A stretch of DNA of 64,000 bases from Narcine bancroftii (Eukaryota): NCBI RefSeq assembly GCF_036971445.1, contig NC_091471.1, positions 356,004,001 to 356,068,000 of the forward strand, given 5' to 3'. Under the pieces are notes generated by a model that saw nothing but the letters and a program-made list of their open reading frames with translations, ran no database searches and was not told where the DNA came from. Within the stretch, counting starts at the first letter, position 1. Every line of letters begins with the position of its first letter. A program made the translations under genes and the position numbers. Shown here one piece after another: positions 6,987 to 60,038 of the stretch.

Positions 6987-9900
6987 TGTACTCACGTGCT
7001 GGCAAAGAAAGACTCAACCACCACATTGAAAGTTGTTAATGACTTCTTATTCAAATTCAGCGCGCACCCCTTTAAAGGCAGCATAAGCTCAGTCACCTCG
7101 TGCATTGTGACGTCATAATCGCTGCCCCAGGCGTGCGCTGGGCAGGAGACTTGAGGCAGGGAGAAACCCTGACAGCGGCATCTTCCCATGGCTGCCTCAT
7201 GGCATTACACGTGGGGCCGGTTCGCCATGAGAGAGTGCACCGCCACACAACCTCTCCCCCCCCCCCACCCCACCCAGAACCAGCTATGTGTCCTGGCACT
7301 TGGGCGGGTGGTCTCAGCATTTGGGCATGGCCGTTGGCACTGGCCGTGATAGGTCTAAGTGCGCCGCCTTCAAACGGTCCACGGTGAAAAGTTCGTCTTT
7401 ACCCCCGTGCCCAAAGTGAAAGTCTTGCCGGGCCGCTGGAGAACCTTGTACGGACCTTCGTACGGACGTTGTAAAGCTGCCTTGTGTGGACCGCGCCAAA
7501 CAAATAACAAATTCTGCCGAGTCCAGCTCTTTGGGATGATTTTTCAGCCAAACGCCATGATGTGAGGAAGGCAGGGGGGGGGGGGGCTAGCAAGGATAGT
7601 TTCTTACGGAGATCTGCCAAAAGGTTCGCGTGCTTGGGCATGACGTTGGGCTCCAGGCCAAAGAACTCACCGGGCAGCGAGAGCGGCGTGCCGTAGACCA
7701 GTTCCACAGAAGATGCCTTGGGTGCTGTTCTGATGCAGAGGAAGACCCAGAGCAGTTCATTTTCCCAGCCTGGGCCGGTGAGGCGAGCCATGAGGGCGGA
7801 TTTTATATAATGATTAAACCTCTCCGCCAAACCATTTTCTTGGGGGTGGAAGGTTCACCAGCTGAGCCAAGAGCGCAGAGGTGAACTGGGCGCCCCTGTC
7901 ACTGGTGATATGGACCGGTACTCCAAGCCTAGCAATCCAATGACTGACTAGGTTCCTGGCACACATCTCTGCAGAAGCCTCTTTGATGGGAATGGCCTCT
8001 GGGCATCTCGTGGTCCGATCGACTATTGTGAGAAGGTAGCGTGCTTCTCTGGACACCAGCAGGGGACCTACGACGTCAACATAGATGTGCTGAAATCTCC
8101 ACACCACCGGGTCGAATTGCTGGATTGGGGGCCTGCGTATGCCGGTGGACCTTGGAGACCTGGCACCTGGTTCAGTTCCTCACCATCTCAGCCACCTCCT
8201 TTTTGAGCCCATGCCACACAAACCGCTCTGCCACCATTTGTACCGAAGTCTTCACTGAGGGGTGGGCTAGGTCGTGAACGAAGCTGAAAACCCTCGCCCT
8301 CCACTGCGGTGGGACTACCAGGCGGGGCGAGCCGGTGGAGACGTCGCAGAGCAGCATGTTGGGGCTGTTGGGCAACTGAATGTCCTGGAGCTCAAGGCCA
8401 GAGATTGTGGTCCGGAGAGCCTGAGTCTCTGTGTCCAGCTTCTGGACCTGTGCCAACTGTGTGTAGTCAAGGCCAGGGGCAAGAGCGTTGATCGCTGGAT
8501 GAGAGAGCGCATCCTCCACAACGTTGTCTTTGCCTGCCCTGTGCCAGATGTTGGTGGTGAACTCCGACACGTAGGAGAGGAGGCACTGCTGGCGAGCAGA
8601 CCAGGGATCTTTCGCCATCGCGAATGCCTTTGAGAGGGGCTTGTGATCCGTGAACACCATGAAGGGCCTGCCTTCCAGAAAGTATCGAAAGTGCCGGATG
8701 GCCAAGTACAGCGCCAGGAGTTCCCAGTCGAAAGCTCTGTACTTGAGCTCTGGCAGGCGCAGCTGTTTGCTAAAGGCGGCCAGCGGGTGCCACTGTCCGT
8801 TGAGCCACTGCTCAAGTACACCCCCTACCTCCATGGCTGAGGTGTCCACCGAGAGCACCGTGTGTGTGCCTCCGGCCGTAGGTGCACCAATAGAGTTGTG
8901 ATGCCGTGGGCCTCCTTTGTTGTGGCAAAAGTGGTCTCTGCCTCCTCTGACCAGGTCAGGACTTTCTCCTTAGTGGCGATCAATGCAAACAGCGGTCGCA
9001 TGGTGTGGGCGGGGCTGGGGATGAACTGATGATAAAAATTCACCATCCCCACAAATTCCTTCAGGCCCTTGAGGGTGGTTGGCTTGAGGAACCGCTGAAT
9101 GGCTACAACGTTCTCTGGCACCGGGACACCACCTGCTGCCGAGATGGTGCCCCAGGAACTGCAGTGTCTGCTTGCCGAACTGGCACTTGGTCACGTTGAC
9201 CATGAGGCCAAACTCCACCAGTCGGGCAAACAGGGTATGGAGGTGGGCCTTGTGCTCTTCGTGGTTGCAGCTGATGATAAGGGTATCGTCCAGGTAGACA
9301 AACACAAAGTCCACTGCATCCATGAGGCACTGAAAAGTCTGGGCCGCGTTCTTGGAGCCAAAAGGCATACGCAGGAATTCAAAGAAGCCAAAGTGGGTGA
9401 TGATCGCCATCTTGCCGATGTCCTCGGGGTGGACCAGGATCTGATGATACCCCTGCACCAGACTGACCTCGGAGAAGACTTGCACATCGTGGAGATTGGC
9501 AGGGAAGTCTTGAATGTGTGGTACTGGGTATCTGTCCGGTGTGGTTGTATCATTCAAACGCCGGTAATCGCCGCAGGGTCTCCAGCCCCCGGAGGATTTG
9601 GGGACCACGTGGAGAGGAGATGCCCAGGTGCTGTCCGAGCAACGGACGATCCCCAAATCCTGCAGCCAGGAAATCTCCTTCTTTGCCAGCTGCAGCTTCT
9701 CGGGCATCTGGGCTTGGCATGCAGCGGGGGGGGACCCTGTGTGGAGATATGGTGGTATACCCCGTGCAGAGGTAAGGTGGCCCTGAATCGCAGTTGAAGG
9801 ATGGAGGGGAACTCATGGAGTATGTTCGAATACTCATCCCTGGAAGTGGCGATCTCGGGCCTGCAGGCGTTCGTGGTGTCCAGGCGCATCGAATGGAAGG

Positions 9901-13758: not shown

Positions 13759-14447
13759 TATTTAGATTGAACAGCTGCACATTTTGAATATTTTCTTCTC
13801 CTTCAAGAGATACAGCATGGAAAAGAAAAAAAGCCTTTCATCAATCACTTATTTACATTAATTCCTTAATTCTTCCTCATTCCACTAACTCCAGATTCCT
13901 GACACTTGTGGAAATTTACAACAGCCAACCTGCACACCTATGGAATGCATGAAGGAAGTGGAGCACCACCGACTGCTTGTATTGGGGGTAGGGGAGGTGG
14001 GAGATAAATACAGACGATGTTATGAGAATTGAAAGGGATTGTGTTGGTTGTTTGAAGAGTGTATGAAAATCAAAAAATGATTTTTTTTTTTAAAAAGAAA
14101 GTGGAGTACATGGTCACAGAGAAAACATTCAAACACCACTCTCCAGGCTTTATAAAATTTGCCATGGCTATGCCGCTTGCCAGTTACACAACAGTGCTGA
14201 GATATCAACATCGCACAACAACTGTAGTTATGAAAAAATTCCACTAAACCACAAAAATGTGTGGATTCCACAATACGAAAAATGAATTGCTGGAGGAAGT
14301 CACCAGGTCACGCAGCATCCACGAGAAATAATGGTCCATCAACATCGGGTGCGAACCCTTTATCAAGGCATTTCTCTGCTCATGGACGTTGTCTAACCTG
14401 CTGAATTCCTACAGCAATTTCTTTTTTGTTCAAGATTCCAGCATCTG

Positions 14448-15074
14448 GTTTAATGTATCTTATATTCTGAACTTTAAATAAATAGAAGGGGAGGTGAGGG
14501 AGGGAGGGGAGGTGAGGGAGGGAGGGGAGGTGAGGGAGGGAGGGGAGGTGAGGGAGGGAGGGAGGGGAGGTGAGGGAGGGAGGGGAGGTGAGGGAGGGAA
14601 GGTGAGGGAGGGAGGGGAGGTGAGGGAGGGAGGGGAGGTGAGGGAGGGAGGGGAGGTGAGGGAGGGAGGGGAGGTGAGGGAGGGAGGGGAGGTGAGGGAG
14701 GGAGGGGAGGTGAGGGAGGGAGGGGAGGTGAGGGAGGGAGGGGAGGTGAGGGAGGGAGGGAGGGGAGGTGAGGGAGGGAGGGGAGGTGAGGGAGGGAGGG
14801 GAGGTGAGGGAGGGAGGGGAGGTGAGGGAGGGAGGGGAGGTGAGGGAGGGAGGGGAGGTGAGGGAGGGAGGGGAGGTGAGGGAGGGAGGGGAGGTGAGGG
14901 AGGGAGGGGAGGTGAGGGAGGGAGGGGAGGTGAGGGAGGGAGGGGAGGTGAGGGAGGGAGGGGAGGTGAGGGAGGGAGGGGAAGAAAACGACACTGTATA
15001 TATTTAAGAAAGAAAATGTATGTATCTTGATCAATGTGGTTTATAGTGTGAAAAATTTAAAAATTTTAAAAAAA
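14448..15074 (+). mobile_element. 5'-truncated L1 (3' UTR only) with internally expanded minisatellite
   Basis: Both flanks of the repeat match the 3' UTR of the full L1 (30785-30955); 13-bp TSD ATTCCAGCATCTG at 14435-14447 and 15075-15087. Confidence 0.88.
14488..14981. repeat. 18-bp polypurine minisatellite (GGGAGGGAGGGGAGGTGA) x ~27
   Basis: Direct reading; nearly homogeneous units with a few variant units. Confidence 0.97.
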
Positions 15075-25011: not shown

Positions 25012-25362
25012 GAGGAGGAGTCACGTGATGGAGTAGTGGCCGGTCAGGGAATTCCAGCCCTCTCCGGAAAAGTTAAAAACAATGCACAAAACGCAAAGGA
25101 ACAAGATTAAAATTTAAAACAAAGTAAAAATAAAGATAAGAAGAAAATGGCAGCGAAGAGAGAAAAGTCAAAAACAACGGGAAGAAGAGAAGAAGAAAGA
25201 ACGTCGGAAGAAGAAGGTGAAGGCCTTACCTGTCCGAGGAGGCCCGCCGCGGAGAGAGAAGCCCGCTCCCTAAGGTCAGTGGAAGTCCCGAGCTCGGGAC
25301 TACAAAAATGGCTCACAGAGCCGAGTAAAAGTGCGCAACCGCGCATGAGCGAGTAATCGCGC

Positions 25363-26394
25363 ATGCGCGATGCGCATGAAAAAATACACACTGACGGGAG
25401 GGGGGAACAGCTGCGGAGTCGATCTCCACAGCTGAGAGTGACAGCTGCAACACAGCAGCAGGTGCAGAACACAGACAATAACGACAACAAGAAAGAAGAA
25501 GGTAAAAAGAAAACAAGGAAACAACAGATGGTCAACCCAGAGGAAGAAGAAGAAGAAGAACAGAAAGAAATGGAAGAAGAAGAGAAAGGCAAGACAATGG
25601 ATATATCTTTTTTTAAAGAATATATGGAATCAGTGAAAGAGTGGCAATTACAAGAATTTAATGAGATAAAAAGAAGAATTATGAATGCAGAAGAAAAAAT
25701 AAATAAAATAGAAATGGTCATATCAGAGATAGGAAAAAGAGTGGATAATGTGGAAGAACGAGAAATAATTATAGAAATGGAAGTAGAGGACTTAAAAGAG
25801 AAATTAGAAGAATCTAATAAAAAAGTTAAAGAGGCACATGAGCTGTTAGCTCAGAAGATAGATATAATGGAAAACTATAATAGAAGAAATAATATAAAGA
25901 TAGTGGGCCTTAAGGAAGATGAAGATGGCAAGAATATGAGAGAATTTATAAAAGATTGGATCCCCAGGGTCCTAGGAAGACCAGAATTACAGGAAGAAAT
26001 GGAAATAGAGAGGGCACATAGAACATTAGCCTCGAAACCAGAACAGCAGCAAAAACCAAGATCCATTTTTGTAAAATTTTTAAGATATACAACAAGAGAA
26101 AATATATTGGAGAAAGCAATGAAGAAAATAAGAGAAGACAAAAAGCCACTGGAATATAAAGGTCAAAAAAATTTTTTCTATCCAGACATAAGTTTTGAAC
26201 TCCTGAAGAAGAGGAAGGAGTTCAATACAGCAAAAACGATCTTATGGAAAAAAGGATATAAATTTACGTTAAAGTACCCAGCGGTACTTAAAATAGTTAT
26301 TCCAGGGCAACAAAACAGACTATTCTCGGATCCAGAGGAAGCACGAAAATTTGCAGAACAACTACAAAACAAGCAGAGAGATGAAGACATGTAA
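25363..26394 (+). CDS. L1 ORF1p (coiled coil + RRM + CTD), open; true start may be a downstream ATG
   Basis: ENYNRRNNIKIVGLKE, IERAHR, KPRSIFVKFLRY, FYPDIS, LKYPAVL motifs. Confidence 0.88.
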   Translation: MRDAHEKIHTDGRGEQLRSRSPQLRVTAATQQQVQNTDNNDNKKEEGKKKTRKQQMVNPEEEEEEEQKEMEEEEKGKTMDISFFKEYMESVKEWQLQEFNEIKRRIMNAEEKINKIEMVISEIGKRVDNVEEREIIIEMEVEDLKEKLEESNKKVKEAHELLAQKIDIMENYNRRNNIKIVGLKEDEDGKNMREFIKDWIPRVLGRPELQEEMEIERAHRTLASKPEQQQKPRSIFVKFLRYTTRENILEKAMKKIREDKKPLEYKGQKNFFYPDISFELLKKRKEFNTAKTILWKKGYKFTLKYPAVLKIVIPGQQNRLFSDPEEARKFAEQLQNKQRDEDM

Positions 26395-26904
26395 TGAGAG
26401 TAAAAATGACCACGAACTATATGTATGTGTGTATATGGGTATATATATATAGATGTATATGTATATGTGTGTATACATGAATGTATCCATATTTAGAGGA
26501 AAATATATAGAGTATAGGTAAGAATCAATAAGGGAATGAAAGGGAATAGAGGGAATAAGGAGGGAATTAAAAGAGTGACCTTTGTTACATATGAAAATTG
26601 AAATCTTTTCCGGGGGGGGCTGGGTGGGGAGGAGTTACGGTCACTGCAAAATCAGTTGACGTTTGCGAGTGAATTCGCAAATCCAAATAGAGAGGGGAGA
26701 TGTGGTTGCCCGACAAGGGATAAAGGGCAACTCAGGAGGGGGAGGGGAGAATGGGGTTAAAGAAGTTTTAAATAGGAGAATAAGGAAAATATTTGATGTT
26801 TTAGAAATGTTGTCTTATAAAGTGTTCAAAACAAGAAAGCAGAAATGGATAAGAAGGAAAGGTGATGATGGTGAAATGGAAATGGAAGATAAACAAAGTA
26901 TGAA

Positions 26905-29900
26905 ATGGCTACGTTGAACTATATGACTTTAAATATTAATGGAATACATAACCAAATCAAAAGGAAGAAACTGCTAAATTTACTGAAAAAAGAAAAAAAT
27001 GATATAGCATTTGTGCAAGAAACACATTTAACTGAATTGGAGCACAAGAAATTAAAGAGAGATTGGGTAGGACATGTAACAGCAGTGTCGTATAATTCAA
27101 AAGCAAGAGGAGTAGCTATATTAATCAGTAAAAATGTACCAATTAAAATAGAAGAGGAAATAATAGATCCAGCAGGGAGATATGTAATGATAAAATGTCA
27201 GATATATTCGGAGTTTTGGAATCTACTCAATGTATATTCACCCAACGAAGAAGATCAAAAGTTTATGCAAGATATTTTTTTGAAGATAGCAGATACGCAA
27301 GGGAACATATTAATAGGAGGGGATTTCAACCTTAATTTGGATTCAAATATGGATAAAACTGGGAAAAAAATTAACAGAAAGAACAAAGTAACCAAATATA
27401 TAATTAAATCAATGCAAGAAATGCAACTTTTGGATATATGGAGGAAACAACACCCAAAGGAAAAGGAATATTCATATTATTCAGGTAGACATAAAACATA
27501 CTCAAGAATAGACCTATTTCTGTTATCAGCTCGTATGCAAGATAGAGTAAGAAAAACAGAATATAAAGCTAGAATATTATCGGACCATTCACCCTTGATA
27601 TTGACAATAGAGTTAGAGGACATCCCTCCAAGAATGTATAGATGGAGATTAAACTCCATGCTACTTAAAAGGCAGGATTTTAGAGAATTCATTGAAAGAC
27701 AAATTAAAATGTACTTTGAAATAAATACGGAATCAGTGAAAGATAAGTTTATACTATGGGATGCAATGAAAGCGTTCATTAGAGGGCAAATAATAAGTTA
27801 TGTAACCAAGATGAAGAAGGACTATAATCAGGAAACAGAGCAGTTGGAAAGGGAAATAGTAAATATAGAAAAAGAATTAGCAATGAAGGAAGATACAACT
27901 AAAAGAAGAGAATTGGCAGATAAAAAAATAAAGTATGAAACACTACAAACATATAAGGTGGAGAAGAACATAATGAAGACAAAACAGAAATATTATGAAC
28001 TAGGGGAAAAAACGCACAAAATTCTAGCATGGCAGCTTAAGACAGAACAAGCTAAGAAAATGGTATTGGCATCAAGGAAAAAAGACAAACAAATCACATA
28101 TAATCCAACGGAGATCAATGAAAACTTTAGAGAATTCTATGAACAATTATACCAAACTGAAAACGAAGGGAAAGAAGGCAAAATAGATGAATTTTTAACT
28201 AAAATTGAACTACCAAAATTACAAATTGGAACAAAATAAATTAACAGAACCATTTGAAATAGTAGAAATACAAGAGATAATAAAAAAAAACTACCAAATA
28301 ATAAAACACCAGGAGAGGATGGATTCCCAATAGAATTCTATAAAACATTTAAAGATTTATTAATTCCTCCCCTCCTAGAAGTAATCAACCAGATTGACAA
28401 AACACAAAGCTTACCAGATTCATGTAAAACAGCAATAATTACAGTAATACCAAAGCAAGGGAAAGATCCACTCGCACCAGCGTCATATAGACCAATATCA
28501 TTACTTAACACAGATTATAAGATAATAGCTAAACTATTAGCAAACAGATTAGCAGATTATGTGCCTAAAATGGTAAATCTAGACCAAACTGGATTTATTA
28601 AAAAAAGACGCACAACAGACAATATTTGTAAATTTATTAACTTAATTCATGCAGTAGAAGGGAGTAAAGCGCCAACAGTAGCAGTTGCTTTAGATGCAGA
28701 GAAGGCTTTTGACAGAGTAGTGTGGAATTATTTATTCAAAGTATTGCAAAAATTCAGTTTACCAGAGAAGTATATTAATTGGATTAAAGCATTATATAAG
28801 GGGCCATTGGCGAAAGTGACAGTAAATGGATATATATCAAAGCAATTTAACTTAAGCAGATCAACAAGGCAGGGATGCCCACTATCACCCTTATTGTTCG
28901 CGTTAGCTATAGAACCACTAGCAGAATTGATAAGAACAGAAAATAATATAAAAGGGATAAAAATAAAAGACAAGGAATATAAAATCAGTTTATTTGCGGA
29001 TGATGTTATAGTATACTTAACAAAACCAGAACTATCAATAAAAGAATTATATAAGAAATTGAAGGAATATGGAGAAGTGTTGGGTTACAAGATTAACGTA
29101 AATAAAAGTGAAGCAATGCCAATGAATAATGCGGATTTCTCAAAATTTAAGAAGGAATCACCATTCAGATGGCAAATGCAAGCAATAAGATACCTAGGTA
29201 TACAAATAAATAAAAATCTCGGCCATCTATATAAACTCAATTATTATCCACTAATGAAAAAATTACAGGGCAATTTAGAGCATTGGAAAGATTTACCATT
29301 AACACTAATAGGAAGGATAAACTGTATTAAAATGAACATTTTCCCAAGGATATTATACCTATTTCAGGCATTGCCAATACACTTGACAGAGAAATTCTTC
29401 AAGGAGTTAAAGAAAATAATAAGGAAATTTTTATGGAAAGGGGGGAAACCGAGGATAGCACTAGATAAATTAACAGAATGGTATAAACAAGGAGGCTTAC
29501 AACTGCCAAACTTTAAAAATTATTATAGAGCCGCACAATTAAGATACCTATCAGATTTTTACCAAACAAGGGAAAAGCCAGATTGGACTAGATTAGAACT
29601 AGATAATATAGGGGAAAAGATACCTGAACACATATTATATAAATGGGATGAAAAATTGGTACAACGTAGGAGTTCTCCAGTATTACATCATCTGCTCAAT
29701 ATTTGGAAGAAGATTCATGTAGAAAGGAATAAAACAAATTACCAATTACCAAAACTATTAATGACGCAAAATCAGTTACTCCCTTTTACAATAGATAACC
29801 TTTCCTTTAGAGAATGGGAGAAAAAAGGGATCAAAAGAATAGAAAATTGTTTTTCAGGAAATAGATTATTTCCTTTGAACAAATGAAAGATAAATACAAT

Positions 29901-30700
29901 ATAACTCAAGATACAGTGCTGGCATATTACCAATTGAGATCCTACTTGAAGGACAAATTAGGAAGCAGTCTGAGGTTACCAGAGGGAAGTATCTTTGAAT
30001 ATGTGATTACAGATACAATGATAATCAAAAGATTTATAACAAATATGTATATTAAACTGCAAGAAAAGGAGAATGAGGAAACAAATGGTAAAACTAACAA
30101 AAATGGGAACAAGATTTAAATATAAAGATAAAAAAGGAAACATGGGAGAAGTTAAGTTCTGGAACGATGAGAAATACAATAAATACGAGGTTACGTATGA
30201 TACATTATAACTGGATACACAGGCTATACATTACACCTCAAAAGTTAAATAAATGGGACCCAACAGTATCTGACCGATGTTTTCGTTTTAAAAAAGAAAT
30301 GGGAACAACAATTCATGCAATCTGGACATGTGAGAAAGTAGAAAAATTTTGGGAAGATCTAAACCAGATATTAAATAAAGTTACAGAAAACAATATACCA
30401 AAAAACCCAGAAATCTTCCTCCTAAGTAACATAAAAAACAAAGAATTTGGAATTGATTTGGATTGTGCACAAAAAAGATTTGTTAAGATAGCTCGAGCCG
30501 TAGCAAAAAAATGTATTATGTCAACCTGGAAATTGGAAGATAATTTGAGAATACAACAATGGTATATAGAAATGAGTAAATGTATTCCATTAGAAAAAAT
30601 AACATATAGTTTAAGAAATAATATTGAAATATTTGAACAAATATGGGAGCCATACATGAAACACAATAGAGAAAATCTACCGGGGACATTCACCACCTAA
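26905..30700 (+). pseudogene. L1 ORF2 (APE endonuclease, RT, C-terminal Cys region), broken by about four frameshifts
   Basis: EN NINGI/FVQETH/GGDFN/SRID/SDHSP; RT LDAEKAFDRV, TRQGCPLSP, LFADDV; shifts near 28227, 28285, 29870, 30098; zinc-knuckle CFRF..H..C has lost its second Cys. Confidence 0.92.
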
Positions 30701-51031: not shown

Positions 51032-54000
51032 TGTGGTGGTACACTACCCGCCGACTGCAGGGGGAAACCCCTGTACCTGGCCGGCTGTCAATCAGTCGGC
51101 CTGAAGAGATCAAGAGAGTCAATCACCCGGTACACCCAATAAGCCTGTACCGGCCTCCCGAGGCCTCACTCAGAATTGCTGCAGCCATAGCCAGCCTGGC
51201 TCTGTGGAAGTCTTTGTGGATTAAAGCCTGTTGTACAGTCGTCTTTACCTTGTGTATGTCTGATTCTGGTTAACAGCACACCACAATTTAATCCACAAAA
51301 TTTTCCTACGCTGCCATGGAAAAGCTCCTGAGTGCAGGGAGCCTCAAAGTTGACCTACGCCACAGGAAAGCCCAGACTCGCTTTTGAGATCTGGCAGCAT
51401 GCGGTCGAGGCACCATCGAGGCACACGCATCCTGGACTCAGATCGGACGAGGCTGGTCCTATTCTGGTCAAACCTGGGTCCCCACGCCTTCCAGGCAACC
51501 AAAGGCTGCTCCATGTACAAGAGCTCAATAGACATGCTTGAGAACTTGTACAAGCCACCCATGAATGAGGTCTGTGCAAGGTACCTCCTCAACACCCATG
51601 CCCAGCAACCCAGGGAGACGGCTGAGTCTTACCTGGGACACCTGCGAGAGTTGGCCCGACCATGTCTGGCTGAACCCGGGGTAGGCCCAGAGGAGGTTGA
51701 GAGGCTACGCTCGAGGGCCATCCAGCCGAAGCTGCTGGAAGATAGTATCTACGCCCTGACCAAGACAGTGGAAGTGGTCCGAACCCTGGAAGCTGCAGCC
51801 CTGCACATCGAAGCCTTCGATTCCAGGTGCCCCCAGGCTCCCTCATGGCCCTCTCGCACTGCAGCTGCAGCCCCAGGCTGAGCTGGGGAGGAGAACATTG
51901 TTGCGGCAGGTGCCTGGCGCCCCTGTAAGTACTGTGGGTCCTGGTGTGGGTCAGACCAACGATCGCGCCCAGCTAGGGCAACTGTTCCCGATGCGGCAAG
52001 AGAGGCCACTTTGCTAAAGTGTGCCTCTCAAAACCAGCCGGCAGCTCAGCAGCCCTCTATGACCTCCCCACCTTCCCCGTGGACCCCTCCACGTGCGCGT
52101 GCCGAGCCATGCCATTGTCCCTGCTACAACTTCTGCCTTCCCCAACTCAGACGGTGCAGCATCCGGCTCCACCAGCGACAATCACAGCGTGTGCCCCAAG
52201 CATCTGGACCAGACCCCGCCCTCGCGGCTTGCCGAGAACTACAGAGATGTCACTTCCAGCTCACAGCGTGATGTCACTTCTGGCAGATGTAATGACGTCA
52301 CTGCCGCCAGCGCAAGAAACACGACTGGGGAAGGCCAGACACGCAGTGGGCCCCCACGTGCCGCTGCCAGCTTGGGCCAGGCAGCAGCCTACACGGAGGG
52401 CCCCTGATGATGAGGAGAACAACGTGGTCAACACAGGCGATGACCAGGCCACCCTACCGACGCTCCCCATGCCTCCGGATGCCATCAGCTGCTGCATGCC
52501 GCACCCCACGAATGACATCAACGTGGTCAACACAGGCGATGACCAGGCCGCCCTACCTACGCTCCCCACGCTGCCGTACACCATCAGCTGCTGCACGCCG
52601 CAACCCACGACTGATGTAGACATGGTGAACACGGGCGATGACCAGGCCGCCCTACCGATGCTCCCCACACCTTCAGATGCCATAAATCACTGCACACAAC
52701 CGGACAGCAATGACTCCGACCCTGAGACAGTCCTGGCTGCCACCACACTGACCAGGCACATCCCTCACGACCTCAGATGCTCTATGATAGTCGTGCAAGT
52801 CAACGTGCAGGTAACAAAATGCCGGTTCGACAGTGGCAACACCTAGAGCTTCATTCATCCGAGCGTGGCCCACTCCCTGAGATTAAAAGTCCACAAACCA
52901 TCTGCTCGATCGCCCTCACCGCCAAGGATAAGACTGTTGGTACCCTCGGGTGCTGCTCGGCCAATATAACTGTGGGAGGGGAGACTTACACGGCATTCAG
53001 GCTCTTGGTCATGCCCAAACTCTGCACCCTAGTCCTCCTGGGCCTAGATTTCCAGTGCCACCTGCAGAGTGTCACCCTTGCCTTCGGCCTCCACTCACGT
53101 TACACAGTACGGAAACCTATCAGCCCTGGCCAACCTGCAGCCTCTCCACACTACGCATCACCCCACCGGCGCTCTTCCCACATCTTATGCTAGGCTGCAA
53201 GCTGATCGCCGTCAGAAGTAGGCGCTATTGCGCCATAGACAGAGACTTCAAGGAGGTGGTGTGGCGACTCCTGGTGGAAGGTGTCATAGAGCCCAGTAAC
53301 TGCCCTTGGAGAGCCCAAGTCCTGGTGGTCAAAGGGGGAAGTAAGCCGAGAATGGTCATCGATTACAGCCAGACCATTAACCGGTACACCCAATTGGACA
53401 CCTACCCCCTGTCTAGGATCGCCGACGTGGTCAATGAGGTAGCCCGCTACTGGGTTTTCTCCACGATTGACCTGAAGGTGGCGTATCACCAAATCCCCAA
53501 CCATCCAAAGGACAAGCCCTACACCGCCTTTGAGGCAGACGGGCGCCTATACCAGTTCCGCAGAGTTCCCTTTGGGGTCACGATCCGTCTTCCAGCAGGA
53601 GATGGATCGCATGGTAGTCCGGCACAAGCTAAAGGTTCCTGTATCTGGATAACTTCACTATCTGCGGCCGTGACCAGCAGGACCACAATGCTAACCTGGA
53701 TAAATTCCTCCAGACGGCCGGGAACTGAACCTCACTTATAACAAGGAGAAGTGTGTATTTAGCACCACCTGCCTCACCATCCTGGGGTGTCCTGGCCTCG
53801 CCATCCTGGCCCATTGGATCGTCAGCCCAGATCCAGAAAGGATGCACCCATTAATGGAGCTACCTCTCCCCCACCCCCCCCAAGCTAAAGGCCCTCTGCC
53901 TATTCTCCAATTACTCCCAGTGGGCCCCTTGCTTCTTGAACAAGGTCTGCCCACTGGCCCAGTCTACAACTTTTCCCTTCCCATCCGAGGTGCAGGGAGC

Positions 54001-56599: not shown

Positions 56600-56710
56600 C
56601 AAGATTGGTGGGGTTGACGTGGTCGCCAGACAAGAAACGGAGCATTTAAACTGGGATTCCACCCATTTCTGACGTGGTCCCGTGTGGCGCTCCTCCTGCT
56701 GTATAAAGCG
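56600..56710 (+). promoter_or_regulatory. NPTX1 proximal promoter
   Basis: TATAAA at 56702-56707; two TGACGT CRE-type cores (~56615, ~56670); inverted CCAAT (ATTGG 56604-56608); CpG-rich; ~165 nt upstream of the ATG. Confidence 0.72.
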
Positions 56711-56869: not shown

Positions 56870-57166
56870 ATGTCCCGCGGAACCGTCGGCAGATATTTCA
56901 TCCTCTCTTTCCTCGTGGCCAAAGCAGCGGCCCAAGAATTCGCCCAGACGCGTTTCATCTGCACCTCCATCCCTCTGGAGATGGAGCCGATGTGCTCGGC
57001 TCCGATGCAGAACAGCGGCCCGGTGGAGGACATCAAGGGGACTATACTCCAGCTCCGAGAGACCATCCTGCAACAGAAAGAGACGATCATGAACCAGAAA
57101 GAGACCATCAGGGAACTCACAGCCAAACTGAGCAGATGCGAGAGTCAAAGTACCTCAGGCTCTTCG
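56870..57166 (+). CDS. NPTX1: Neuronal pentraxin 1, exon 1 (signal peptide and first coiled coil); end placed at in-frame donor TCG|GTGAGT, ancestral donor is at 57306
   Basis: AAAQEFAQTRFICTSIP..LQLRETILQQKETIMNQKETIRELTAKLSRCESQS matches NPTX1. 3' boundary uncertain (57166 versus 57306 with a 1-nt frameshift). Confidence 0.85.
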
Positions 57167-57306
57167 GTGAGTGAAATGAAATCCGGGCAGGGCTCGGCGA
57201 GGGCGCTAGAAATTCCGCGGCAGGTCTCTCTCTAGATCAAGTGGACACTCCAAATCAATTTGGACAAACTTTAAAAACAGTCAAAGCACGCCTGGCGAAT
57301 TTTGAG
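57167..57306 (+). other. NPTX1: Ancestral 3' part of NPTX1 exon 1, frameshifted and diverged
   Basis: A different frame reads RNSAAGLSLDQVDTPNQFGQTLKTVKARLANFE|GTAAAT, homologous to human KNTMGDLSRTPAAETLSQLGQTLQSLKTRLENLE; the ATG frame stops at TAG 57233-57235. Confidence 0.8.
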
Positions 57307-57673
57307 GTAAATATGTACAATTAGAAAATGAGAAGTCTCAAACCAAATGAGAAAGTAATTGTTAATTGCATTACCTAGGACAGTAAGTTAGTCCCACTGT
57401 ATATAGGTGATAGATTTAAAGAGTGGCTGAATCAAAACATTGATTAAGAATTATATTTAAATCCGATTATATTAAACGTGCCCCTTTAAACAACACGAAA
57501 TAATCGGCTGATTGGGAAAGATAGAGGTAGGTGTGCTGTGCACTGGACCTGGGACAGTGTGAGTTAACGGGTCAGAACAATGTCCATAATGCGGTGTTTA
57601 CTTCGAGCCTCCTTTCAGCCGATAATCCGCTTCTGACACCCTTTTTTCTCTTGCATTCGCCCCTCGAGCACAG

Positions 57674-57884
57674 CAGTACAACCGTGCCAACACCACCGCT
57701 CAGACAAATACCTTGAAAGATCTGCTGCAGAACAAAATAGACGACTTGGAAAGGCACGTCCTCTCCCGGGTGAACAGTTTGGAAGAGACCAAAAACCTGG
57801 TGAGGAACGACACGACGGAGAACAGAGGAAAGATTGAAAACGCGCTCAATTCCCTTCACCAGAGGATCAGTGACTTGGAAAAAG
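57674..57884 (+). CDS. NPTX1: Neuronal pentraxin 1, exon 2
   Basis: cacag|CAG; QYNRANTTAQTNTLKDLLQNKIDDLERHVLSRVNSLEE..LHQRISDLEK G|gt. Confidence 0.93.
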
Positions 57885-58649: not shown

Positions 58650-58894
58650 GACAAAAAAATTCCAGGCCGACGGACAAATTCCAGATTACCTTTCCCCTGA
58701 GGACAAACTACATGTACGCCAAAGTGAAAAAGAGCCTGCCCGAGATGTATGCGATGACCGTCTGCATGTGGCTCAAATCAAACGCCTCTCCCGGCGTCGG
58801 GACTCCGTTCTCCTATGCCGTCCCGGGGCAAGCCAACGAGCTGGTCCTCATCGAGTGGGGGAACAATCCAATGGAGATCCTAATCAACGACAAG
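58650..58894 (+). CDS. NPTX1: Neuronal pentraxin 1, exon 3 (pentraxin domain start)
   Basis: tttgtag|GA; QKNSRPTDKFQITFPLRTNYMYAKVKKSLPEMYA..IEWGNNPMEILINDK|gt. Confidence 0.96.
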
Positions 58895-59858: not shown

Positions 59859-60038
59859 GTGGCGAAGCTCCCGTTCGTCATCACTGACGGGAAATGGCAC
59901 CACATCTGCGTGACCTGGTCCACCAGGGACGGGATATGGGAGGCGTATCAAGATGGCATGAAGAGAGGGAACGGTGAAAACCTCGCGCCGTGGCATCCCA
60001 TTAAACCGGGCGGCATCATGGTCCTGGGCCAAGAGCAG
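59859..60038 (+). CDS. NPTX1: Neuronal pentraxin 1, exon 4
   Basis: tttctag|VAKLPFVITDGKWHHICVTWSTRDG (pentraxin signature HxCxTW)..VLGQEQ|gt. Confidence 0.96.

Follow-up and report, generated by a model that had tools for sequence, protein, structure and literature searches.

NPTX1 gene model

The window (the whole 64,000-nt stretch of DNA analysed) contains one neuronal pentraxin gene on the + strand, with five coding exons and four introns, all exon ends being AG/GT (Table 1). Splicing from the donor after 57166 to exon 2, which the earlier note had predicted to give an open protein of 384 residues, does so when exons 3-5 are included, and the product is identical at 384 of 384 positions to RefSeq XP_069786063.1 (record P0138), whose source label is Narcine bancroftii. 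The top named matches of the product are NPTX1-like. Moreover, the Mobula long form, which is 96% identical, scores 428 bits on the solved NP1 and 364 bits on NP2. Sequence comparison thus places the gene nearest to NPTX1, a synapse organiser, ahead of NPTX2 and the remaining pentraxins.

Exon 1 gave at least one match in the 3.33-Gb genome (G000) in a DNA search, and at least one in a search with the tail protein. The possibility that the tail also exists in intact form at another site of this genome was considered and rejected: among the matches listed, both types of search returned a single locus, these counts being lower bounds. Upstream of the gene, direct reading of the + strand reveals two CRE-like TGACGT words at 56615 and 56670, and a TATAAA word at 56702.

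Exon 2 starts with tandem acceptors at 57674 and 57677, and further in-frame AG sites lie at 57704 and 57731 (+). Matching exon-2 acceptors are joined to the short donor in RefSeq models X3 of Chiloscyllium plagiosum, X2 of Leucoraja and X2 of Rhinoraja, and model X1 of Stegostoma has an extra Gln at the joint between the short donor and exon 2. This varied acceptor use indicates that the linker tolerates several trims.

Table 1. Coordinates of the features in the window (position 1 is its first letter).
Feature	Position	Strand	Remarks
LTR-retrotransposon pol pieces, two frames: reverse transcriptase, RNase H, integrase zinc finger	8175-9812	-	
LINE endonuclease PF03372	26893-28236	+	Pfam
LINE reverse transcriptase PF00078	28258-29883	+	Pfam
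LINE further open frame	30098-30697	+	
NPTX1 (nptx1-like) exon 1, coding part in use	56870-57166	+	Signal peptide, Cys31/42/90, first coiled coil; 99 codons; RNA-type contigs over parts
Used 5' splice site TCG/GTGAGT, phase 0	57164-57172	+	Joints in X5, X7, X9; equivalent joint in X14; U1 pairing -10.2 kcal/mol
Former exon-1 tail, 140 nt	57167-57306	+	Out of frame; skipped in every spliced contig seen; 153 nt in open-tail relatives
Interval with net 13-nt loss (frameshift)	57194-57207	+	Best-scoring break against seven long-form tails; DNA contig X1 ungapped
Premature TAG, ATG frame	57233-57235	+	71 nt upstream of old junction; predicted NMD trigger
Old vertebrate-ancestral donor GAG/GTAAAT	57304-57312	+	Sequence intact; no joint seen; U1 pairing -6.9 kcal/mol
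Original intron 1	57307-57673	+	Intron now removed is 57167-57673, 507 nt
Exon 2	57674-57884	+	Two remaining predicted helices of second coiled-coil region
Exon 3	58650-58894	+	Pentraxin domain start; loose contig ends behind exon 2 read into exon 3
Exon 4	59859-60038	+	AG/GT ends; identity to P0138
Exon 5, coding part to TAA	61516-61737	+	

A frameshift in the exon-1 tail

The earlier note had described a frameshift in exon 1, and its description of the reading frame agrees with our analysis. The ATG and the donor after 57306 (phase 2) delimit 437 nt; translation from the ATG ends at the premature TAG after 121 codons, and the NPTX1-homologous tail lies in a different frame. The nature of the lesion had been misjudged: it had been put down to a single G missing at about 57185. 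When every single break was scored against the tails of seven shark and ray long forms, the best position was after tail codons 9-13, with a mean BLOSUM score of 129-133, versus 116.6 for a break after codon 6, near 57185. The tail measures 51 residues (153 nt) in these seven long forms and 140 nt here, which corresponds to a net loss of 13 nt. A one-base loss at 57185 was rejected, as it scores clearly worse and leaves 12 nt over. The ancestral sizes also had to be corrected: the long product has 434-435 residues in sharks and rays rather than 431, and the skipped part was 51 codons long rather than 47. The G runs near the break reach three bases at most, so that homopolymer slip does not explain the lesion.

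A small extra intron running from 57167 to an acceptor-like site at 57235, followed by use of the old donor, was also considered. It leaves a 71-nt piece that is out of frame, and the joint from 57167 to 57235 was not seen in the spliced contigs examined; this model was rejected.

The lesion in DNA contigs and in relatives

A 1765-nt contig from DNA run X1 is identical to the window at 1301 of 1301 bases, with no gaps; it possibly comes from the assembly's own sample and so tests the assembly, not the population. Two further organisms carry a similar lesion. In organism C (DNA run X8), a 443-nt contig covers 444 bases of the window with one gap letter, and in organism D (run X9) a 352-nt contig covers 352 bases with two gap letters. 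In both, one base is missing within 57184-57227, a position deduced from depth bins (expected 8.82 and 5.38, observed 8.83 and 5.38) and not read from alignment rows. As there are four gap letters in three rows, the gap row at 57184-57227 is common to C and D. The tail is 139 nt long in organism C and 139 or 140 nt long in organism D, and is out of frame in both. As deduced from the depth bins, these tails appear to be shortened like that of the window, with a second indel in addition. The shared deletion suggests that organisms C and D are other electric rays.

Run X6, which is more than 99% alike, yielded three short pieces, none spanning the tail break. One of these pieces (151 nt, depth 2.4) matches 57233-57287 and has 96 unrelated letters in front; it is probably a chimeric read.

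The earlier note had offered an assembly indel in the G run as its alternative. An error of the assembly, or one specific to the individual, hiding a true gene with an open tail, is extremely improbable. X1 may indeed share the assembly's sample, and one of its four runs was compared. However, a loss of 13 nt is not a homopolymer slip, the separately assembled contig matches without gaps, the tails of two other species have been shortened to a nearly equal length, and the tail carries an excess of amino-acid change that argues against an error. Assembly error is rejected, and the frameshift is real.

The splice donor in use

The consensus phase-0 donor pointed out in the earlier note is present, and it is joined in contigs. 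The 57166-57674 joint (GT..AG) occurs in contigs from two of the three same-species RNA-type runs, X5 (depth 4.2) and X7 (depth 3.7), whose loose ends continue into exon 3; the third run, X15, gave no alignment to the region. All three runs belong to one study and were only presumed to be RNA, none of the runs listed being recorded as such; the spliced joints argue that those which carry them are RNA. Of the 15 runs listed, eight were aligned (X1, X5-X9, X14 and X15). That X5 and X7 leave 57167-57306 uncovered is informative only insofar as their contigs bridge this stretch by a splice joint. In organism D, the same joint is found in a spliced contig of depth 101; alongside it, an unspliced contig has a depth of 5.5 (about 5% of the spliced depth) and continues past 57306 without a break as far as 57488. 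The equivalent joint is present in organism F (run X14), in one contig of 2271 nt and depth 116. The 57306-57674 joint was absent from the four runs with spliced contigs, although rare variants tend to be lost in contigs and such transcripts would be hidden by NMD. When the two junctions are compared, as had been proposed, only 57166-57674 is found in RNA-type contigs. Thus, the upstream donor is the one in use and the tail is skipped.

Pairing with the U1 end favours the upstream donor over the old one (Table 1). A transcript spliced at 57306 has its stop 71 nt upstream of the junction; NMD generally acts on stops lying roughly 50-55 nt or more upstream of a junction. Just before the used donor (57152-57166), three of five residues (95, 97 and 98) are changed in this lineage at otherwise conserved columns, possibly reflecting a relaxed linker or splice-site tuning.

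The old donor might still be used at a low or regulated level, either as a poison switch to NMD or to produce a secreted peptide of 121 residues, carrying the three cysteines and coil 1, which could join pentraxin oligomers. The old site is indeed intact although the deletion seems to predate the divergence from C and D; with the region diverged by roughly 6%, however, the survival of one 9-nt site is to be expected. Likewise, the unspliced contig of organism D fits such residual use, but it may be pre-mRNA or DNA. Moreover, the tail frames differ between species (139 versus 140 nt), so that no common peptide end is kept, and none of the four runs shows the joint. We consider continued use of the old donor unlikely.

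The short isoform across cartilaginous fishes

The short junction is present in the models of 15 of the 19 chondrichthyan species seen, six having both forms, nine the short form only and four the long form only. These are automatic RefSeq models, covering 15 of the 25 short-cluster members among the matches listed, and the age of the donor is read from protein junctions. Both forms, with an open long form, are found in Callorhinchus (a chimaera), Heptranchias (a hexanchiform shark), Chiloscyllium plagiosum, Cetorhinus and two Mobula. Short models only are found in C. punctatum, Stegostoma, Rhincodon, Scyliorhinus canicula, Hemitrygon, Hypanus, Leucoraja, Rhinoraja and the ray itself (P0138), and a long model only in Heterodontus, Hemiscyllium, Carcharodon and Pristis. 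In all ten chondrichthyan long forms the tail starts with Val-Ser, which at the protein level fits GTG AGT.

Outside the cartilaginous fishes, the short junction was found in none of 111 records among P0009-P0120. The tail helix is kept in 207 of the 214 non-chondrichthyan matches with a coil-1 anchor, NPTX2-like matches included, in a survey of cluster representatives that took the best 120 of 474, all 78 and the best 120 of 141 matches and set aside 32 without the anchor. Of the seven matches without the helix, one is a pattern miss, two are models in which exon 1 is joined directly to exon 3, two carry unrelated sequence and two are partial. The motif xTM[GD]D precedes the helix in 205 of these 207 sequences, versus one of ten chondrichthyan long forms. 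The junction and helix counts support a downstream donor only as the ancestral state, and the six species with both isoforms annotated as RefSeq models represent an intermediate state with both donors.

The short-junction donor probably dates back to the common ancestor of chimaeras and elasmobranchs, long before the deletion, as judged from the junctions in the protein models. This ancestor lived over 400 million years ago. In six species the identical junction is annotated alongside an open long form, so that the donor predates the frameshift, and the order of events proposed in the earlier note, in which an upstream donor rescued the frameshift, is reversed. A lesion coming first, followed by recruitment of a new or cryptic upstream donor to restore the frame, would agree with the strength of this donor and with the changed residues 95, 97 and 98, since local tuning of the site is possible. 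There is also a precedent, frame-restoring isoforms after indels being documented in rice (PMC8893660). However, the junction stands beside an open long form in lineages as distant as a chimaera and a hexanchiform shark, and organism F also uses the equivalent upstream joint. Rescue by a newly recruited donor is therefore very improbable.

The distribution of species with short models only was mapped on a protein tree, built with the tail columns left in. This label requires six changes, three of which are forced by well-supported branches, and it shows no clustering, a number as low being obtained in 171 of 500 shuffles. The two sister Chiloscyllium species differ, which indicates that part of the short-only pattern is annotation noise. 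Searches for exon-1 fragments in other assemblies returned at least two chondrichthyan-like matches, P0141 and P0142. P0141 is 108 residues long, has a skate-like start and ends four codons into the tail; this end may be an independent stop, the alternative being the end of a contig. In the Pristis record P0001, which is flagged as low quality, residues 179-182 include an odd three-residue stretch in exon 2, outside the tail, which looks like a corrected sequence fault. In the literature searched, where subscription papers were thinly covered, no paper title dealt with a short chondrichthyan NPTX1 isoform.

Constraint on the tail

The tail had been described as much more diverged than the rest of the gene. 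The excess of change is real, but its extent was overstated by comparison with the human sequence, as the changes are partly shared with Pristis and Mobula. Indeed, Pristis and Mobula, whose tails are open, also have the Gln-Phe-Gly change and likewise lack the Thr-Met-Gly-Asp motif. Compared with the Pristis tail, the window differs at 9 of 42 residues and Mobula at 5 of 42; in the helix part, the corresponding figures are 6 of 24, including Leu-to-Pro at the start of the helix, Leu-to-Val and Leu-to-Phe, and 1 of 24. Where five other sharks and rays share the same residue, lineage-specific changes in the window amount to 6 of 29 in the tail versus 7 of 327 elsewhere (Fisher p=2e-4). The net loss of 13 nt, the premature stop and this excess characterize the skipped stretch as non-coding.

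In organism D, substitutions number 21 of 322 in tail and intron, which are inseparable here, versus 7 of 242 in the exon (p=0.052). Third-position GC in the old frame is 0.38 in the tail (42 codons) versus 0.72 in the used parts of exons 1-2 (169 codons).

The open tail of Mobula has also evolved fast (3/32 versus 2/329, p=0.006), and Pristis, Heptranchias, Heterodontus and Carcharodon show no lineage-specific tail change at 29 columns. These observations bear on a wider and more tentative proposal. Cartilaginous fishes may have switched as a group to a short NPTX1 lacking a helix and a motif that hardly vary in bony vertebrates and NPTX2. The long form would then have been lost more than once, in separate lineages, and the short protein might differ in oligomer geometry or in its choice of partners. 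The lineages concerned would be the ray clade (by the deletion), skates (by a stop four codons into the tail) and perhaps stingrays, the catshark and the whale and zebra sharks. The scarcity of xTM[GD]D in chondrichthyan long forms counts for a partial relaxation, whereas the absence of change at 29 columns in four sharks and rays counts against a group-wide loss of constraint, the tail still being constrained in some lineages. Taken together, group-wide switch and repeated loss are possible, but we regard the combination as rather doubtful.

The short protein

The spliced product keeps the signal peptide, the three N-terminal cysteines (Cys31, 42 and 90) and the pentraxin domain, as had been anticipated. 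The latter is recognized at residues 184-372 (PF00354, 121.6 bits for a cut-off of 25). A heptad scan of the long form detects coil 1 at 52-93, followed by stretches at about 126-159, 166-188 and 195-224, and the short form is without the first of the stretches that follow coil 1. The AlphaFold model of the long form, computed from 44 sequences, places helices at 53-93, 125-155, 160-188 and 197-220, with an unstructured segment at 94-124, at low confidence (mean pLDDT 45). The model of the short form, computed from a single sequence, agrees on the helices, also at low confidence (mean pLDDT 40), and both models define rough helix limits only. The spliced product lacks the CC1-CC2 linker, the first of three predicted CC2-region helices and the TMGD motif. 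The incomplete second coiled-coil region is thus the mark of a short isoform and not of another gene.

Human and mouse NP1 and NP2, as described in PMC12799932, share with the ray protein the signal peptide, the three CC1 cysteines, the CC2 region and the pentraxin domain, whereas the ray protein is without the linker and the first predicted CC2 helix (long-form residues 100-150; helix about 125-155). The solved structures of NP1 and NP2 cover pentraxin domains only (PDB 6YPE, 9LAD). In human NP2, the same source reports that CC2 alone forms trimers without binding GluA4, that the pentraxin domain binds GluA4, and that CC1 disulfides stabilise the oligomers (PMC12799932). By analogy, the short form probably still assembles and binds AMPA receptors, on a shorter stalk.

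Probable takeover by an old upstream donor

Altogether, we consider it highly probable that exon 1 is spliced from 57166 to exon 2 to yield the 384-residue protein, and that the 140-nt tail is the decaying remnant of an older long isoform. As the protein junctions suggest, the Val-Ser codon pair of exon 1 would already have served the ancestor of cartilaginous fishes as an in-frame donor (GTGAGT), so that two isoforms differing by 51 codons were made. The short form may then have become the main one, with selection on the tail slackening across the group. A deletion that shifted the tail frame at little cost is shared by three species, the ray and two relatives, and presumably arose in their common ancestor. 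Any leftover transcripts spliced at 57306 would be removed by NMD, leaving the short form as the sole full-length product. This product is predicted to be a secreted protein with three cysteines, coil 1, two of the three CC2-region helices and the whole pentraxin domain, able to oligomerise and to bind AMPA receptors. Splicing at the upstream donor probably made the tail dispensable, and its frameshift and decay would therefore have been tolerated.

The earlier note had considered the tail a candidate for intronization. This term designates a new intron formed from an internal part of an exon through newly arisen boundaries, and PMC2740785 treats boundary movement separately. In the strict sense it does not apply here, since no intron was gained: intron 1 was extended at its 5' end, and the boundary is not new to the lineage, its junction occurring in 15 of 19 species. 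The event is an intron-boundary movement, in which an alternative 5' splice site probably became the only productive one. As in the boundary movements of that source (PMC2740785), exonic sequence was turned into intron by a single boundary shift, with frameshifting indels as a mark. Such moves are described there as rare in Cryptococcus and mostly within 9 nt, compared with 140 nt in NPTX1.

In the model of Koren et al. (PMC1876488), exons with alternative 5' splice sites arise when a mutation inside a constitutive exon makes a competing donor. The NPTX1 case is similar, and the stretch between its two donors is frame-preserving (153 nt), as in that model. NPTX1 goes one step beyond it, the ancestral site having become unproductive in one lineage. 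With the indel-associated splicing of rice (PMC8893660) it shares the bypass of a non-3n indel by another splice form; the rescuing isoforms of rice mostly appear only with the indel and are rare, whereas the short form of NPTX1 predates the indel and is dominant.

XP_069786063.1 is the same protein and, like the 384/385-residue isoforms of other chondrichthyans, has the same junction. These short-form records are automatic models, silent on the genetic death of the long form and on the bony-vertebrate helix. The short protein, through RefSeq, and the type of event were thus already known, and the surprise is limited accordingly. One vertebrate gene nevertheless displays three stages of a takeover: the downstream donor in bony vertebrates, both donors in several sharks, mantas and a chimaera, and the upstream donor with a dead tail in the ray and two relatives. 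The case also shows that NPTX1 can do without a helix that neuronal pentraxins otherwise conserve, and it provides a natural construct for the role of the start of CC2 in trimers and in AMPA-receptor clustering. If the repeated losses proposed above did occur, the short protein would be a natural and long-tested deletion mutant at excitatory synapses, where a changed choice of partners would concern NPTX2 and NPTXR. For annotation, homology pipelines that force the long form would mislabel NPTX1 here as frameshifted.

Other elements in the window

A LINE-type retrotransposon, with its ORF2 in separate open frames, occupies 26893-30697 (+). Upstream of this ORF2, the open frame at 25357-26391 gave no Pfam match. 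Two long open frames lie at 51977-53738 (+), the first of which has no Pfam match but opens with a zinc-knuckle pattern of CCHC-like type that hints at a gag remnant. Finally, 14383-15003 is a tandem repeat with a six-residue unit when read on the - strand.
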